DNA of 64,000 nucleotides from a virus (lineage: Duplodnaviria; Caudoviricetes): the IMG/VR virus record IMGVR_UViG_3300031867_000013, positions 1 to 64,000 of that record. The stretch is one strand, 5' to 3'. Each line of letters opens with the position of its first letter. Position 1 is the stretch's first letter. Under the pieces are notes generated by a model. The model saw only the letters and a program-made list of their open reading frames with translations, was not told where the DNA came from and ran no database searches. Positions 1,262 through 63,979 of this stretch are shown here, in pieces. The translations under genes were made by a program, and so were the position numbers.

Positions 1262-2989
1262 TTATACTATTGCCCTCGGCTCGGACGCACCCCGCGCACC
1301 GAAATCCGCATTGCCGCTGGACGCAGAGAAAATATTGCAAAGCGTGCAACGAGAGCCGCAAGTAGAAGAAGCGTCCCAACCGCCGCCCAATAACACCCGC
1401 CGCAACAAGCCCTTACACTTGCCGTATTTTTGAGAATCAGTCCCAGAATAGTATACAGACGATTCTTGCCACGAATACCCTGCGAGATCCTGATTTGTTG
1501 TGGAATTCCACGTGGCTCCTGGGTAAAATTCATGGCAATCAGCAGCCCACTGCCACAGCACGCCACAGCAATCTTCAAGGCCGTAATTACTGATCATTCG
1601 CAGATTGTTTGTGTCTTTGTGCCCGCCAGTAGTGTTTGGGTCTGCCGAACCATAAATGTTTGTCCGTTCGTTCGAGCCTTTCGCAAACACCATAAAATCA
1701 TCTCTTGAAGGTAATTGTTTCTTTACTAATCCAAAGTATTCTACAAATTTTTCTCCGTGGAAATTAGGTGTACTTGCCCCATCTGCAATTATTCCATTAT
1801 ATTCTGACACTAATTTTGCGCCATCATAACTTGCTAAGTATATATCTACCCATTTATTTACTTCGGGTATATATACCATTCCTTCATTTTCACTTGTTGC
1901 TCTATGTATTAAGTCCCACGGACTTTGAGGAAGTATATCTCCTGTTAGATAACCACTTAATGTATGTCCACTTATTGTGCCTACTGATAAACATAGACAA
2001 TGGAATCCTCCCATTTTGCGCGAATTATCTGCTGTATATCCTGTTGGAACAGTTGAATTTGCACTTAATATAAAATCGGGAGCATCATTTGATGTTGGTT
2101 CACAAGCATATATATAGAAATCTTTTCCTGCTCTTTGTGCCGCACTTGTATATGTACTATCGTCCCAATTATCTGCATTTTCTATATCTATTAGTTTTGT
2201 TCCTTCTAATACATATCCTCTGTTATTTATATTTATCCATGTTGGATATATTGTTATAGTAGTTTTATTTGTAGTATACAGTTGTTCACGCTCATAATGT
2301 GCAGGTGCTGTTGCTACAAATTTTCCTATTTCTACTGTTTCCCACATTGTTGTTGATTTTCTATATTTTATTTGTGGTATTAGTGTTATTGCTGGTGGTT
2401 GTACTGTATTTACTGAATCTGAATAGATTGAATTTGAATTAGAAGCCTTAAAATCTAATGGAGACACAAAGTACAAATGTCCTCCACTTTGTTGTTTCTG
2501 ATATGTAAAAGCATCATTATTTACTGAAAATTTACAATCTGAAAATACACCATTTGACATTGGGTCAGAAGCACCGCTTGGAGTAGTAGATGACCATTGT
2601 GCGCCACCAGCACCTTCTCCTTTTATATTAGGCAATCCTGCTTCTTTTTCTTCTACTGTATTTCCACCTTGTAATACTAAATCTATATAATTAGGTAATG
2701 TTAGTACATCTGTTGTACTATCATATTTGAATAAACTATTATCTGTTGTATCATTTGTTATTAAATTATTATCTTGCGCGAAAGATAAGAGGTCACTATA
2801 ATCATTAGAAGCATTTGCTAATGGAGTACCATCTAATTTTAAATAATCTCTCATTAGATACATTTGCCATGTTATATGACCTACTTGTGTGTCTCCATTC
2901 ATTATCCCTCTTGGTGTTTTCTTTGATATTTCTTTCATTATTGATATTAGATTATCTTTTTGTGAATAATGTTTTGACATTTTTATCAT
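1262..2989 (-). CDS. Tail fibre with collar-like N-terminus and Mtd-like (C-type lectin/FGE-fold) C-terminal domain
   Basis: Motifs GGFHCLC, WVDIYLAS, SNYGLEDCCGVLWQW and LLGGGW...CGSR...GARGASEP are typical of major tropism determinant-like proteins. Confidence 0.8.
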   Translation of the reverse strand: MIKMSKHYSQKDNLISIMKEISKKTPRGIMNGDTQVGHITWQMYLMRDYLKLDGTPLANASNDYSDLLSFAQDNNLITNDTTDNSLFKYDSTTDVLTLPNYIDLVLQGGNTVEEKEAGLPNIKGEGAGGAQWSSTTPSGASDPMSNGVFSDCKFSVNNDAFTYQKQQSGGHLYFVSPLDFKASNSNSIYSDSVNTVQPPAITLIPQIKYRKSTTMWETVEIGKFVATAPAHYEREQLYTTNKTTITIYPTWININNRGYVLEGTKLIDIENADNWDDSTYTSAAQRAGKDFYIYACEPTSNDAPDFILSANSTVPTGYTADNSRKMGGFHCLCLSVGTISGHTLSGYLTGDILPQSPWDLIHRATSENEGMVYIPEVNKWVDIYLASYDGAKLVSEYNGIIADGASTPNFHGEKFVEYFGLVKKQLPSRDDFMVFAKGSNERTNIYGSADPNTTGGHKDTNNLRMISNYGLEDCCGVLWQWAADCHEFYPGATWNSTTNQDLAGYSWQESSVYYSGTDSQKYGKCKGLLRRVLLGGGWDASSTCGSRCTLCNIFSASSGNADFGARGASEPRAIV

Positions 2990-49478: not shown

Positions 49479-49794
49479 TGGTGGACTAGACGGAGGCGAA
49501 TCCGTGTCCGAAATTACTACATTTCAAAGAACTATCACAATAGCTATATTAACTGATAGCAACAGTAGTAGAAAAGGAGATTTTATTATGAAAAACTTTG
49601 TTGTATTTATTTAATATTTTTCTGCATTGACCTACAACATAGTATTACAGAAAAAGAAACTGATAGCAACTTATGCCGCTACAGCTTCATATTCAAAAGA
49701 AAAGTTGTCAGTTATTATACTGTTTAGACTTTAACGCTGTACATTCCGTGTGAACTTTGAAATTTCATAACTCCGTCGAAACATAAACTAGCCC
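49479..49794 (-). ncRNA. ssrA: tmRNA; tag (A)DNFSFEYEAVAA*
   Basis: 5' GGGCTAG..TTCGAC; acceptor GGGCTAG/CTAGTCC-ACCA with G3:U70; resume context ATAACT-GAC; tag ends in AA. Confidence 0.9.
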
Positions 49795-51633: not shown

Positions 51634-52155
51634 TTGAAACCTGTTATATCAAGCAAAAATACAAAAGGAATGGTAAATTTTACAAAATCTATGGTTCATA
51701 GTATAGCAAATATAGCTTCTGTATCTCCAAGAAGTTTAGCTTTATTTTTAGCTTTATGTTCTTATGCTGATGACAATGGTTCATTAATTACAGACAATAA
51801 AACATTAGCACATTTAGTTAAAACAGAAACAAGAAAAATTGATTATTGTTTAAGAACACTACAGGAACATGGATTAATAGAAATACATAATGTAAATATT
51901 AAATATAATCACGATATATTTGGTAAAATACATGATAAACAAAATTATTATAAAACTAATAAACAAGAATGGAATATTACAGGAGATAGATATTTAACTA
52001 CAATAACTATTAGTGGTACATATAAAAGAATTTATCTTAATAAAGAATATGTTTCTTTTGCTAATGGTTATTATAATACATTATTATTATATGTTAAAAA
52101 TAATTTATACTATGATACAAGATTATCAGACAATCAAATTATTGAAGAAAGGTGA
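51634..52155 (+). CDS. Winged-helix DNA-binding protein (RepL-like)
   Basis: LFLAL..YADDNG.L....TLA.......I...L..L.E.GLIE pattern; RBS AGGAGG. Confidence 0.6.
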   Translation: MKPVISSKNTKGMVNFTKSMVHSIANIASVSPRSLALFLALCSYADDNGSLITDNKTLAHLVKTETRKIDYCLRTLQEHGLIEIHNVNIKYNHDIFGKIHDKQNYYKTNKQEWNITGDRYLTTITISGTYKRIYLNKEYVSFANGYYNTLLLYVKNNLYYDTRLSDNQIIEER

Positions 52156-58099: not shown

Positions 58100-58616
58100 A
58101 TAATATATATAACAGTACATTAAACAGCACATTGGACGGATATATTTTTATCCGTCTATTTTTTTTTATATTTTTATAGTTTTATATTTTTATATGTATA
58201 TACAAAAGGTAATTCAAAATTCTCCAAAAATTTTTCGACACAAAGAGGATATACATATAAGAAGTGAAATATTATTTAGTGTTTTTGAGGCATTTCATTT
58301 AGTATTTTTGGGGTGTATTATTATATGTTTTTGGGATAAATAATGTTCAATATAATAGACATTATAATTTATAGCGCAATAAAATTTATATGGCGCAACA
58401 TAAAGATATAAATACATATATTTAAATAAATTTCGGCAAAAACATAAAGGTGCAGAATTTAATTAAAAATCTATTTGGGCGAAAAAATAAATAAAGAAAA
58501 GAAGATAAGTATATAGATAAAAAATAATATAATATGCTATAATTACATTTTGACATATAGCGTTACATAGGGGTAACTTGAAGTCTGAAAAAATTTGAAC
58601 GACTGGAATAACGTAT

Positions 58617-58772
58617 TGAGAACGATTCTCACTTGAACCCCGCGGAGGTAGTTGAGAATGATGATCAGTTGAGAACGATTCTTAATTGATAATGGATTCT
58701 CATTTGAGAATGGTTTTCATTTGGGAATGATTCGTAATTGATAATACGTTCTCAAATGAGAATGGATTCTCA
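58617..58772. promoter_or_regulatory. Tandem array of 8 Fur-box-like palindromes
   Basis: TGAGAA(C/T)-N1-2-(A/G)TTCTCA units at 58617, 58653, 58670, 58687, 58705, 58722, 58739, 58757. Confidence 0.65.
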
Positions 58773-58779
58773 ATTAGAA

Positions 58780-58818
58780 CGTGCATAAAAATTTATGGTG
58801 TATGAATAAAAATTCATC
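58780..58818. promoter_or_regulatory. Tandem ARG-box-like pair
   Basis: TGCATAAAAATTTA and TGAATAAAAATTCA offset by 21 bp. Confidence 0.5.
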
Positions 58819-60389: not shown

Positions 60390-60602
60390 ATGAAGCCGAT
60401 TGCTTATTATGCTTTATTCGTTGATTTCCTCATTATGATATATGATATTGAGTACGGGATTAATGATTATATAATATATACATATAAAACACCATCGAAG
60501 GAAAGCAGGAAATTTAAGGCGAAAATTAGATATGATAAGGCAGGAAACGCCTATTTTCGGCAAAAGAATCCTGTACCGCTTTCGGAGTGCATGAAATATT
60601 AA
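60390..60602 (+). CDS. Hypothetical early protein
   Basis: RBS AGGAGG; followed by terminator. Confidence 0.6.
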   Translation: MKPIAYYALFVDFLIMIYDIEYGINDYIIYTYKTPSKESRKFKAKIRYDKAGNAYFRQKNPVPLSECMKY

Positions 60603-60622
60603 GCCCCATTTGGGGCTTTTTT
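60601..60622 (+). terminator. Intrinsic terminator
   Basis: AAGCCCCA-TT-TGGGGCTT followed by T run. Confidence 0.75.
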
Positions 60623-60643: not shown

Positions 60644-61373
60644 AATATTCTGAATATTTTTACTATTTCTTGATACATAATTATCAGAATATTATAAACA
60701 TTATAATATATCACAATATTTTGCCAATGCCATAGAATTATCAGAAAATTAAGATGTGTCATAATATTATGTTAATCATCTGAAATTGTCAGAATATTGT
60801 ATGTATCATAATATTCTGAAAACTAGATGTGCATGAATTGTCAGAATATTAAAAACATTATATGTATTTGAATGAATTGTACATAGAACGAATACAATTT
60901 AATATGTCAATAGGAAAAAAGTCCAAAATGTATGTTCTATATAAAAAATAGGAGTAAAGTCTATTGACACATAAAAACAAGGGCAAATAGTCCTATTATT
61001 TTAGAACAAAAATCGAACACTTCTAAGCCTTGCAATTATTGAAAAATCGTCATAGACGGACGAAAATCTATGTGCCTATATAAATATATGCAGACAACAT
61101 AAAAAACGATTCTAGGGGCATTTACGGGCGAATAAAGGGTATTTCTATATATTCATATATACCCATATTTTCCCTAAAAATATTTTTGTCTTTGACTTTT
61201 TGACTTATATGCAAGTTGTCAGAATATTATAAATACACATAATATTTATAGTATTATTAATATTATACTAATTATTTGATGCTATACATTTGTAAATTAA
61301 CATAATTTTCTGTCAATTTATATATCTATAATATTTTGAAAATTCAATAGATACATAAAGTTGTCAGAATATT
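60644..61373. promoter_or_regulatory. Cluster of CodY-box-like sites (about 10)
   Basis: AATTATCAGAAAATT, AATTGTCAGAATATT, AATATTCTGAATATT and similar. Confidence 0.6.
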
Positions 61374-61670
61374 TTGCAATATATGTGTCAATGGGAAATA
61401 TGTCTTATTTTTATTTGTCAATAGACCATAAGACTTATTTTTATATTTATTATATTTTCGCGTCACATAGGGATATAGAAAAATGTATATGGCTTTTATT
61501 CGTGCATAAATAGGGCTACAATCAATTTTTATATGCTATTGGTATATCTATATAAGGATAAAATAAAAAGGGCTTAAATAGCCCTTTATGCTTGTTATAT
61601 TGAATTGTGTATATAAAAAGACAATTCCCCTGCCGTAATTAGCAGGGGAAATATAGGGAAGATTATTTTA

Positions 61671-62588
61671 TCAGCCTACCAATGTTGAAAGCAATTCTAA
61701 AGCATTGTCAAGCAAAGCATTTCCGCGAATAACGCTTTTCATTTGATTTTCCCTGTAGGTCTTGGTCATGCGGGCAGGTTCAGAATGATAGGCAAAATCC
61801 GATACAGCCTGCAAAAATCCATAAGCTGTGCCGCGCAAATTGCCTAAATCATCAGCGTTATAGGCTGAAATTAAGCCGCTACGTTGATTTTCCACGATGT
61901 CCCGTTTGCGCGGCGTAGCGTCAGCAGGGAGCGGGAGCAAATTCCCAACGAGCGCATTAAACATAGTGTTTGAAACGTGAATACTTGCAAGGCGTTCTGT
62001 TTCTTGCTGAAAAATGGTACGATAGGAATTTTCATGTTCCATGATATTCCCGACCATTTCCAACTTCCCTGCTACGTCTCCTTTGTGGAGAAGGGAAAAC
62101 GACCGAACGGCTTTCTTGAAGGCAAGGTTCAAAGTGTTAGAACAAGCAGGACGGACGGGAGTGATGGCGGCGCGAATTGCGCCTTTCCCATCATGCGTAC
62201 TTGAGAAAACAACATACATTTTCATTGATTCGCCAAGGGTCATAAATTCGGGGACTTCTACGCACATCCATATTGTTTTGCCACCACTGACAATTCCCGC
62301 CGAAACGAATTTGAAATCTGTCAAATACGTTAAGAAGGAAAAAGCATCTTTGTTTTGTACGGTCTGATAACGGTCTGATACCACACCAAGAAAAGCGTTA
62401 TTGTCAGAACGGACGTTTACCTTCATGGGTGTTTCGAGGATATTACCGTCTGCAAGGCGAATCAATGCGGGAGTTTGTACGACTTCCCAGTTCATATCAG
62501 CAAGGGAAATTGCGCTTTCCACATCCACCGCGCCCGAAATATCCTGTCCATACTTCCAAGGCTCTACACGATTCATCATTTTCAACAT
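61671..62588 (-). CDS. DUF932/DUF945-type phage/plasmid protein
   Basis: VRSD....LGVVSDRYQ.VQN..AF, HDG.GA...TPVR..CSNTL, GTAYG..QAV; start MLKMMN after AAGGAG. Confidence 0.85.
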   Translation of the reverse strand: MLKMMNRVEPWKYGQDISGAVDVESAISLADMNWEVVQTPALIRLADGNILETPMKVNVRSDNNAFLGVVSDRYQTVQNKDAFSFLTYLTDFKFVSAGIVSGGKTIWMCVEVPEFMTLGESMKMYVVFSSTHDGKGAIRAAITPVRPACSNTLNLAFKKAVRSFSLLHKGDVAGKLEMVGNIMEHENSYRTIFQQETERLASIHVSNTMFNALVGNLLPLPADATPRKRDIVENQRSGLISAYNADDLGNLRGTAYGFLQAVSDFAYHSEPARMTKTYRENQMKSVIRGNALLDNALELLSTLVG

Positions 62589-62778
62589 TTTCAACACTCC
62601 TTTTTTAAAATAGATGATTAACCTATACATATTAAACCACAAACAAATAATTATTGCAAGCATTTTTTTTATAAAAATCATAAAAAAATTTTCCTTCCTA
62701 TTATAAGGGAAAAATTTTTATAATTTACATATCTATTGAAATTGAGAATAATTTTTATTTGCCCATCGAGGATTTTAT

Positions 62779-63107
62779 AATTTTCTGACAATTCCATAGG
62801 AAGATATAATAATATTCTGAAAATTTCAGGCGAATAGAGGAACACAAAATTTTCTGAAAATTTATAAAAATTTGACTTCCATATAATTGTTTTAAGCGAT
62901 TTTTTCAGACTATTCCATATATTTATACTAATAAGAATTTTTCGTGTCTTAAAACTAATTTCTTAAAGTATTGAAAATACTGACTTTTCAGGCTATTATG
63001 ACAATTATAAACATAAATGTAAATATTCTGAATATTATACTAAATATTTAATGTATGGATTCTTATATATAGTATAATATTCTGACAGATATAATATTCT
63101 GATAATT
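62779..63107. promoter_or_regulatory. Cluster of CodY-box-like sites
   Basis: Exact AATTTTCTGAAAATT at 62848; near-matches at 62779, 62811, 63022, 63093. Confidence 0.6.
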
Positions 63108-63233
63108 TTATGGCGCAAATAAAGATTTCAAAAAATTATGTGTTCCTTTAATAGATTAAAGTATAAAAATGTCAAGATATATATATACAATAAAAAATTC
63201 CCCCGCAAAAAGCAGGGGAATATGTATATATAT

Positions 63234-63410
63234 TTATTCTTCCTCCTTTTGTACGTCTACGACTTCTTTTACACCCAAGAAACGGAAATTATGCAAGTCA
63301 GAAGGAGTAAACCACTTTTTGCTTGCAATTTTAGCCGCTTCTTTTTCGTTCTTTGCATCAACGTAAATCTCCCCCGTAAAAACAACGTCTACTTGCACTT
63401 GATACGTCAT
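63234..63410 (-). CDS. Small early protein (58 aa, not in ORF track)
   Basis: RBS AAAGGAG; MTYQVQVDVVFTGEIYVDAKNEKEAAKIA...; promoter upstream and terminator downstream. Confidence 0.65.
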   Translation of the reverse strand: MTYQVQVDVVFTGEIYVDAKNEKEAAKIASKKWFTPSDLHNFRFLGVKEVVDVQKEEE

Positions 63411-63526
63411 AAGAACATCTCCTTTTCATATAATAAATTCAACCTAACTATATTATACACATTACAGGATATAATGCAAGTGTTTTTTATAAAAAATCCT
63501 AAAATATTTTTCTTTCTATTATAAGG

Positions 63527-63979
63527 AATTGTCAGAATATTTAGTGTCTTTTGACAATGCACATTTGTTGGAACATTTTGTATTCTATATATGGTAAAAA
63601 TCATACTATTCTGAATATTTGCCTTGCTAGAGTAAGAGATTAAATTTTCAGAAAATTTCAAATTTGTCCACGGCATATCAAAATTTTCAGAAAAATCTAA
63701 ATAATATAATACGTCAAATATATCTGAAATGTGCATAAATACTGACAATTAGGAATATTTCGGCGCAAACAAAAAGGAAACATAATATTCAGAAAATTAG
63801 GCAATTTTTTCCTATATAGAGAAATACAAATTAGTCAGAAAATTATAAAATATAAGAATAATATAATATGTCAGAATATAGGCGCAACATAAAGGAATAT
63901 GAATTTTCAGATAATTCTTATATATCTTATTATTCTTATATTTCGCGCAAAACAAAAAGGGATAAATATTCAGACAATT
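63527..63979. promoter_or_regulatory. Cluster of CodY-box-like sites
   Basis: Exact AATTTTCAGAAAATT at 63643; near-matches at 63527, 63605, 63682, 63784, 63830, 63902, 63965. Confidence 0.6.

Follow-up and report, generated by a model that had tools for sequence, protein, structure and literature searches.

An array of about thirty CodY-type boxes in gene-poor DNA of a large gut phage, a possible sink for a host nutrient regulator

Clusters of sites for host master regulators on phage DNA are already known as a kind. The virulent Bacillus phages phi29 and Nf carry boxes for Spo0A, which globally regulates the host's passage into starvation, as well as parS sites, and in phi29 a handful of Spo0A sites lies on early and late promoters and on origins, where repression has been proven (PMC2731898). 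In pili- and flagellotropic phages of Alphaproteobacteria, CtrA sites have been found in a skewed distribution with a site-dense large intergenic region, a signature that has evolved independently in unrelated lineages; these sites lie preferentially in promoters, binding and regulation have been demonstrated ('lytic deferment'), and some of the phages encode CtrA homologues (PMC9437464). A third system, the 15-bp SPbeta repeated element (SPBRE), is found repeatedly between the genes of a large Bacillus phage and is bound by the phage-encoded, recombinase-fold repressor MrpR at ∼10 promoters (PMC10516654). Here, we describe an array of ∼30 boxes that match the sites of CodY, a central nutrient sensor of Bacillota responding to branched-chain amino acids (BCAA) and GTP, in the phage genome IMGVR_UViG_3300031867_000013 (117,886 bp, rated complete by CheckV, from a bovine gut metagenome). 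The first 64 kb of this record form the window that has been analysed; positions beyond its edge are given as genome positions.

With phi29 and Nf, this phage has in common that a virulent phage of Bacillota carries sites for a host regulator of the starvation transition, and it departs from phi29 in the number of sites (∼30), in the type of regulator, and in their placement off core promoters and within gene-poor DNA. The skewed, site-dense layout and its independent appearance in unrelated lineages recall the CtrA phages, from which regulator, host phylum and signal differ, and no CodY domain has been found in the array-bearing phages considered here. Unlike SPBRE, the boxes recur in phages without common proteins, and the phage has no detectable protein of the tyrosine-recombinase type. 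Compared with chromosomal CodY operators, the boxes follow the same 15-bp pseudo-palindrome AATTTTCWGAAAATT, with A/T at positions 4 and 12, G/A at 5 and C/T at 11, and the arrays of other phages repeat the 9-bp lattice of cooperative sites; in contrast to these operators, the phage sites are putative and viral, reach ∼30 in 4 kb, have a much higher mean quality, lie mostly off promoters, and stand singly in the window instead of in overlapping pairs.

The array zone (60.6-65.9 kb) is flanked on one side by the end of a plus-strand gene block and on the other by that of a long minus-strand block; it is repeat-dense and gene-poor, has a GC content of 23%, and contains several duplicated modules. 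The exact 15-mer occurs at 62848 and 63643, which are its sole copies in the window (shuffle expectation 0), and all 23 coordinates listed in an earlier note on this DNA carry the motif, the near-matches with 1-3 mismatches. That note had counted about twenty sites; these are real, and the true number is ∼30, as seven further boxes of cluster IV (64074, 64116, 64155, 64185, 64200, 64507, and 64653) extend the array beyond the window as far as genome position 64,667, so that four clusters result (Table 1), among which cluster III also has weaker boxes at 62900, 62983 and 63078. The zone comprises two exact, nine one-mismatch and 13 two-mismatch sites, and the mean box quality in the array is ∼1.5 mismatches from consensus. 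The remaining genome holds only ∼22 scattered matches, nearly all with three mismatches, and with the relaxed palindrome AATWNTCWGANWATT at ≤1 mismatch 29 of the 30 genome sites fall within 60.6-64.7 kb, i.e., 4 of 118 kb, which bears out the confinement to one zone that had been noticed before. As the null, 300 dinucleotide-preserving shuffles of the zone's own 4.1 kb of non-coding DNA (GC 23%) have been used: at ≤2 mismatches, 24 observed sites stand against 0.25 expected, and for the relaxed pattern at zero mismatches 18 stand against 0.02, while the reversed pattern, taken as a control, has given 0-2 matches in every genome tested. Because shuffles of the AT-rich zone itself return so few sites, AT content does not explain the enrichment. 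The boxes in the window are isolated 15-mers spaced 15-57 bp apart, separated by spacers that are mostly unrelated to one another, and cluster I begins 26 nt past the terminator that closes the plus-strand gene block. Three-box modules have been duplicated (window 63605-63696 and genome 64116-64199), and in both copies TTTGTCCACG, a DnaA-box-like 9-mer with two mismatches, is conserved between the second and the third box (63664, 64176).

A measure of selection on the boxes has been provided by the metagenome contig L154 (1,036 bp, 86% identical), the only relative in the selection test. A search with the DUF932 protein encoded within the array, in a version whose N-terminal 30 residues were later found to be non-coding, has returned no relative in viral contigs and this one short relative in metagenome contigs; a conserved non-box 21-mer has found no match in viral contigs. 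Box columns are 94% identical in L154, compared with 75% for other non-coding positions and 59% for the coding sequence of the second gene of the zone, a 58-amino-acid (58-aa) frame (Fisher p = 8e-9), which diverges faster than the boxes. All good boxes of cluster III are conserved, and changes within good boxes are found only at the degenerate positions 4, 5 and 12, which leaves the motif intact. Because of this difference in identity and the restriction of changes to degenerate positions, the boxes are, as judged from this one relative, under purifying selection. In addition, L154 has 38 extra nt between box 63527 and the promoter of the 58-aa gene. Most of the array zone is also matched by short contigs, 80-95% alike, in four further animal-gut or rumen runs from separate studies.

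The earlier note had proposed to look for similar arrays in related phages, and such arrays have been found, though in unrelated ones. An exact-15-mer scan of IMG/VR with follow-up searches has identified them in Herelleviridae, in a Sextaecvirus and in at least three metagenomic phage types, and several contigs of metagenome-assembled genomes (MAGs) bear them as well. The fragment G001 (38 kb) has 61 sites confined to a zone of 13 kb, the complete 123-kb phage G003 has 39 of 40 sites around its contig ends, and Bacillus phage Belinda has 38 sites, its array occupying 1.6 kb of gene-free DNA in the terminal repeat. Bacillus/Cytobacillus phage P59 carries 48 strict sites, 24 in each 13.3-kb terminal repeat, including 12 tandem boxes before one promoter and two box sets in opposite orientation ∼2 kb apart, and in the Mammaliicoccus Sextaecvirus phage vB-SscS-F1 the boxes occupy a divergent intergenic region. 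A skewed, zone-confined distribution is common to the phage described here, G001, G003, Belinda and P59, and the dominant half-sites (AATATTC, AATTGTC, AATTTTC, and AATTATC) are used nearly identically across the array-bearing genomes. In arrays of other phages (L014, L033, L117, and L176), the boxes form a 9-bp lattice with spacing peaks at 9, 18, 27 and 36, comprising 34 spacings of 9 bp and 18 of 18 bp. By BLASTP and phmmer, the phage has no protein in common with G001 and only ribonucleotide reductase, dUTPase and one coiled-coil-like unknown in common with G003 and Belinda, and the genes embedded in the arrays of other phages show no recurrent Pfam family.

Among the MAGs with arrays, two rumen or gut Bacillota genomes encode CodY. 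A CodY-encoding Peptococcaceae MAG has 19 of its 21 strict boxes on one 140-kb contig of phage or other origin, where 17 boxes lie within 6.6 kb among small unknown genes (L178/L190 = G004:C1:64090-70726); the other 2.76 Mb hold two, and the one strict chromosomal box examined lies upstream of a GGDEF/EAL sensor gene. In a Selenomonadaceae MAG, a prophage carries a box cluster ahead of its HNH-TerS-TerL genes. The MAGs of three array contigs binned as Bacteroides or Bacteroidales lack CodY, which at first sight speaks against CodY as the binder. The array contigs L176, L181, L183 and L161, binned as Bacteroides, Bacteroidales and Nanoarchaeota, have genes with strong Shine-Dalgarno sites, as have the three just named, and these sites make it probable that they are phage or mobile DNA of Bacillota placed in the wrong bin. 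The host label of the GenBank entry 'Arcanobacterium phage TPWB06' (L157, PQ358086.1) likewise looks doubtful, as the entry has the same matches as the Mammaliicoccus sciuri Sextaecvirus genomes MZ417338, MZ417341 and MZ417342.

Regarding the protein that occupies these sites, the boxes are indistinguishable from CodY boxes at the sequence level, and the earlier note had named their 15-mer as the CodY consensus. A table of CodY boxes in Streptococcus salivarius lists AATATTCTGACAATT for thrC, AATATTCTGAAAATT for ilvD, AATTGTCAGAATTTT for ilvE and lysC, and AATTGTCTGATAATT for livK; these entries are predictions supported by the transcriptome of a codY mutant, not footprints (PMC5966866). The exact 15-mers of boxes 62811 and 64200 are identical to the boxes listed there for ilvD and thrC, and the G5, C11 and A4 variants of the phage boxes are also found among them. 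The phage most likely infects a low-GC Bacillota host, because its large terminase subunit (TerL, ∼50% identity) and major capsid protein (∼40%) are closest to proteins of Streptococcus, Clostridium, Bacillus and Brevibacillus phages and its genes combine strong Shine-Dalgarno sites with TG-extended -10 promoters; a TerL search of bacterial genome contigs has given no match. No HTH_CodY domain has been detected in five array-bearing genomes, this phage included, and no candidate DNA-binding protein common to the array-bearing phages has been retrieved by BLASTP or phmmer, so that a phage-encoded binder, an outcome that the earlier note had considered, has found no candidate. Because unrelated phages carry the boxes without a common binder protein, a conserved host factor is favoured, and CodY of the host is probably that factor.

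Multicopy operator DNA titrates its repressor and derepresses the chromosomal regulon by mass action, as is exploited in the Fur titration assay. The array may be a natural version of what has so far been a laboratory artefact and tool, i.e., a copy-number-amplified sink for host CodY, a reading to which we give a probability of roughly one in three. The working product of the zone would then be the occupied DNA itself. Each phage genome would bring ∼30 consensus-grade sites, far more than a whole Bacillota-type chromosome has at such quality, and replication to hundreds of genomes would yield thousands of sites better than most chromosomal operators; CodY would presumably be drawn from the weaker chromosomal operators by mass action, and host genes for amino-acid and peptide supply would be released while virions are built. 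Local effects on the few promoters of the zone would be secondary. Titration by mass action would follow if CodY binds at all, given the many replicating genomes; we infer that CodY is present in the host and binds the boxes, and that selection has acted on titration and not on gating.

Several features favour such a sink. The zone has been described as non-coding in the earlier note, which is nearly right: the only protein genes in its ∼5 kb are the DUF932 gene and the 58-aa gene, which lie on the minus strand and have a promoter and a terminator each (Table 1). Boxes 62779, 62811 and 62848 lie 162-231 nt upstream of the predicted DUF932 transcription start, the box nearest to the 58-aa promoter (63527) is centred at ∼-89, and boxes 63093, 63078 and 63022 lie at +41 to +112 of the promoter-like element at 63148, whereas the cores of the three best-supported promoters are free of boxes; a sink is favoured because the boxes are centred off the core promoters in this way. 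It is further favoured because the distance between box and promoter is not conserved, as seen from the 38-nt indel in L154, and because ∼30 near-consensus sites have no more than a few small genes to serve within 5 kb of DNA that the phage has kept nonetheless. The quality of the sites is well above the chromosomal norm, as typical chromosomal CodY sites have four or more mismatches (PMC10415144), and the concentration of boxes on a single contig of the CodY-encoding Peptococcaceae MAG points in the same direction.

The neighbouring DNA contributes a last argument for the sink, because Fur- and ARG-box-like arrays occupy the same gene-poor DNA. Packed Fur-box-like palindromes and an ARG-box-like site have been read from the sequence in a gene-free stretch that precedes the CodY-type array by 2 kb (Table 1), and they would act likewise for iron and arginine. 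In its widest form, this would make the whole stretch from 58.1 to 65 kb a protein-free DNA sponge for several regulators, by which CodY (BCAA/GTP), Fur (iron) and ArgR (arginine), i.e., repressors, are stripped from the chromosome; replication-amplified arrays would turn on amino-acid, peptide and iron supply for virions, and the CodY-type version would have evolved repeatedly in unrelated Bacillota phages. We consider this extension tentative and rather doubtful.

A number of observations weigh against the sink. CodY operators are typically 24-nt sites in which two boxes share 6 nt (a 9-bp shift) and bind cooperatively, with higher oligomers possible, and CodY binding to a lone consensus site is reported to be much weaker than to overlapping ones (PMC10415144); for no box in the window has a 9-bp-shifted partner with ≤3 mismatches been found (the best has four, and the mean is 6.2 against 6.8 in the null), a layout not expected of a sink optimised for affinity. 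Several boxes overlap weaker promoter-like hexamers, with TTGTCA within the box or yATAAT formed with the flank, and further promoters hit by boxes may be under direct control. In G001, the boxes have a regulatory look, as one to three of them accompany each small early-type transcription unit. The array is not general to large Bacillota phages: Enterococcus H1, Geobacillus E3, Alicyclobacillus KKP_3916, Brevibacillus Sundance and crAssphage, five large phages, have zero boxes. Finally, the known precedents, Spo0A on phi29 and CtrA on Alphaproteobacteria phages, act as sensors, and the searched literature describes no natural sponge of phage DNA that acts on a host regulator.

These precedents lead directly to the strongest alternative, in which CodY on the boxes switches the DUF932, 58-aa and small non-coding units of the zone and thereby reads the BCAA and GTP state of the host. 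Direct precedents for such gating are Spo0A on phi29 and Nf (PMC2731898) and the clustered CtrA sites (PMC9437464), and the boxes of G001, G003, P59 and vB-SscS-F1 are located in promoter-bearing intergenic regions of small early-type genes. In the window, boxes flank the upstream regions of both zone genes and several overlap promoter-like hexamers, as noted above, and one conserved promoter-like element points into three boxes, an arrangement that would, if the element is real, have the geometry of a roadblock. Hexamer pairs resembling promoters are only modestly above shuffles (39 vs 25 ± 5); a stricter promoter scan has missed real promoters and has not been used. Against gating, the cores of the three best-supported promoters are box-free, the box-to-promoter distance differs in L154, ∼30 sites for two small genes far exceed the needs of a switch, and P59 has a tandem dozen ahead of a single promoter. 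Both outcomes had been contemplated in the earlier note, and its reading as decoy sites draws some support from boxes off the core promoters, from the gene-poor DNA and from an excess of sites over promoters, although these data do not separate decoy from gating. Accounting for all this, gating is possible but not probable, and for this window we lean towards the sink over nutrient-gated promoter control.

In a different explanation, which we regard as unlikely, the boxes are bound by another protein, either a phage regulator, as MrpR on SPBRE, or a different host factor with a preference for a similar AT-rich palindrome, and their likeness to CodY boxes is coincidence or mimicry. It is common for phage repressors to have repeated operators of 15 bp (SPBRE/MrpR, PMC10516654), most proteins of this phage belong to no known family, a novel small binder is conceivable, the boxes of G001 and G003 are immediately preceded by GC-rich letters (CGGCR) that are foreign to the CodY consensus, and the overlapping 24-nt architecture of CodY operators is missing in this window. 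Domain searches of this phage have, however, found no HTH_3, HTH_CodY, sigma-70 region 2 or tyrosine-recombinase (Phage_integrase) domain, and no integrase, sigma factor or Xre-type repressor; as described, no DNA-binding candidate is common to the array-bearing phages. The half-site spectrum, together with the 9-bp lattice seen elsewhere, specifically fits CodY, and recurrence across unrelated phages is simpler with a conserved host factor.

It is very unlikely that the array is a structural DNA element such as origin iterons, a partition centromere, or packaging or injection signals, for which the AT-rich, repeat-dense and gene-poor character of the zone between convergent gene blocks, the position of the Herelleviridae arrays in terminal repeats and the two oppositely oriented box sets of P59 may be cited. 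The single initiator-like gene (HTH_36/DnaD-like, 51634-52155) lies at a distance of 9 kb, the terminase is of the PBSX-type headful kind with its small-subunit gene at 42-43 kb, and no initiator, ParB or TerS family is common to the array-bearing phages, among which a common signal would be unlikely given their differing replication and packaging machinery. No initiator or ParB-type gene has been noticed beside the zone, where the neighbours are DUF932, the 58-aa frame and small unknowns, although no search was aimed at ParB families. A functionless chance product of AT-rich, repeat-rich DNA or of recent tandem duplication, as the 23% GC and the duplicated modules might suggest, is ruled out by the excess over composition-matched shuffles and by the conservation of boxes in L154 next to diverged spacers, and is further opposed by the mostly unrelated spacers within the array and by the absence of sites from five AT-rich large phages.

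Table 1. Boxes, genes and signals in and around the array zone (window positions; L154 is the metagenome relative; RBS, ribosome-binding site).
Feature	Position	Strand	Remarks
Fur-box-like palindromes (TGAGAATGATTCTCA type), then ARG-box-like site	58617..58815		packed; sequence read
Bidirectional terminator hairpin	60601..60618		closes plus-strand gene block; array starts right after
Box cluster I	60644..60850		six 15-bp boxes: 60644, 60679, 60736, 60784, 60810, 60836
Box cluster II	61214..61373		four boxes: 61214, 61304, 61330, 61359
DUF932 terminator	61625..61650	-	
DUF932 (PF06067) gene	61671..62591	-	inside array; RBS-preceded ATG at ∼62591
DUF932 promoter, sigma-A-type	62631..62659	-	TTGCAA, 17 nt, TG-extended TTTAAT; box-free; conserved in L154
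Box cluster III	62779..63107		boxes 62779, 62811, 62848 (exact consensus), 63022, 63093
Promoter-like element	63148..63175	-	TTGACA, 16 nt, TATTAA; fully conserved in L154
58-aa gene terminator	63197..63221	-	
58-aa gene	63234..63410	-	no function assigned; strong RBS
58-aa gene promoter, sigma-A-type	63452..63479	-	TTGCAT, 16 nt, TG-extended TATAAT
Box cluster IV	63527..63979		boxes 63527, 63605, 63643 (exact consensus), 63682, 63784, 63830, 63902, 63965

The DUF932 gene deserves a comment on its start. The raw open reading frame would begin at 62681, and this start has been rejected: the extension of 30 spurious codons contains the gene's own promoter, and for this reason the real start is placed at the downstream ATG (Table 1). 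The AT-rich leader common to the DUF932 and 58-aa genes includes the only match of the zone to a GenBank phage, 54 bp at window 63470-63523 that are 87% identical to an unannotated stretch of Rossellomorea phage phiT1.

Besides the boxes, the zone contains other repeats. Two paralogous non-coding modules of ∼270 nt (window 60960-61230 and genome 64230-64500, the latter L009:230-500) share a promoter-like start (TTGACA...AATAGT), a hairpin (TCGTC-loop-GACGA) that leads into a T-run on the minus strand, and two more conserved blocks, ATATAAATATATGC and TCTTTGACTTTTTG. A box stands after each module; neither module has a match in Rfam, and they are candidate small-RNA genes. An Rfam scan has found tRNAs and tmRNA elsewhere in the genome only and nothing in the zone. 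A further repeated element reads GGCGCAAA-n-AAAAAGG on one strand and a T-tract plus GCGCC on the opposite one, and in many copies a box is only 1-4 nt away; the element occurs at window 58370-58450, 63112-63119, 63762-63769, 63881-63888 and 63945-63953, at genome 64525-64540 and, inverted, at 64930-65110, its orientation flipping near 64.7-64.9 kb. The unrelated phage G001 shows the same composite of T-tract, GCGGCG and box. Terminators have been rejected as an explanation of the T-tract plus GCGCC elements, as five of them, folded on the minus strand, give no stable hairpins.

The remaining gene content of the phage is that of a large siphovirus-type virus, with a 2,421-aa tape measure, portal, major capsid protein and large terminase of the PBSX type, and with genes for DNA polymerase, ribonucleotide reductase, a RecA-like protein, a clamp loader and RNA ligase/kinase. 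A GH25 lysin, eight tRNAs and a tmRNA are also encoded, the last adjoining the tRNA island (window 49479-49794, minus strand). On the same strand, at window 1262-2989, lies the gene of a tail protein with an Mtd second domain, the target type of diversity-generating retroelements.

Compared with the known cases of host-regulator sites on phage DNA, the novelty lies in the regulator, in the scale, in a layout that avoids promoters and in the presence of sites of other repressors in the same DNA; a full-text literature search, in which subscription journals were not covered, has found no paper on CodY sites in phage genomes. If CodY binds these boxes, large virulent phages of Bacillota would be wired into the central nutrient sensor of their hosts, either reading or disarming it, and they would provide a third and widespread case, after Spo0A and CtrA, of phages that exploit host master regulators. 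If the array is a sink, it would be the first natural instance of a virus that reprograms host metabolism by non-coding DNA alone. The question is accessible to experiment, since cultured phages carry such arrays, namely Belinda and relatives on B. thuringiensis, P59 on Cytobacillus and vB-SscS-F1 on Mammaliicoccus sciuri. For phage annotation, gene-free 'junk' in terminal repeats may be functional, and the finding bears on how phage infection in gut and rumen depends on the nutrient state of the host.

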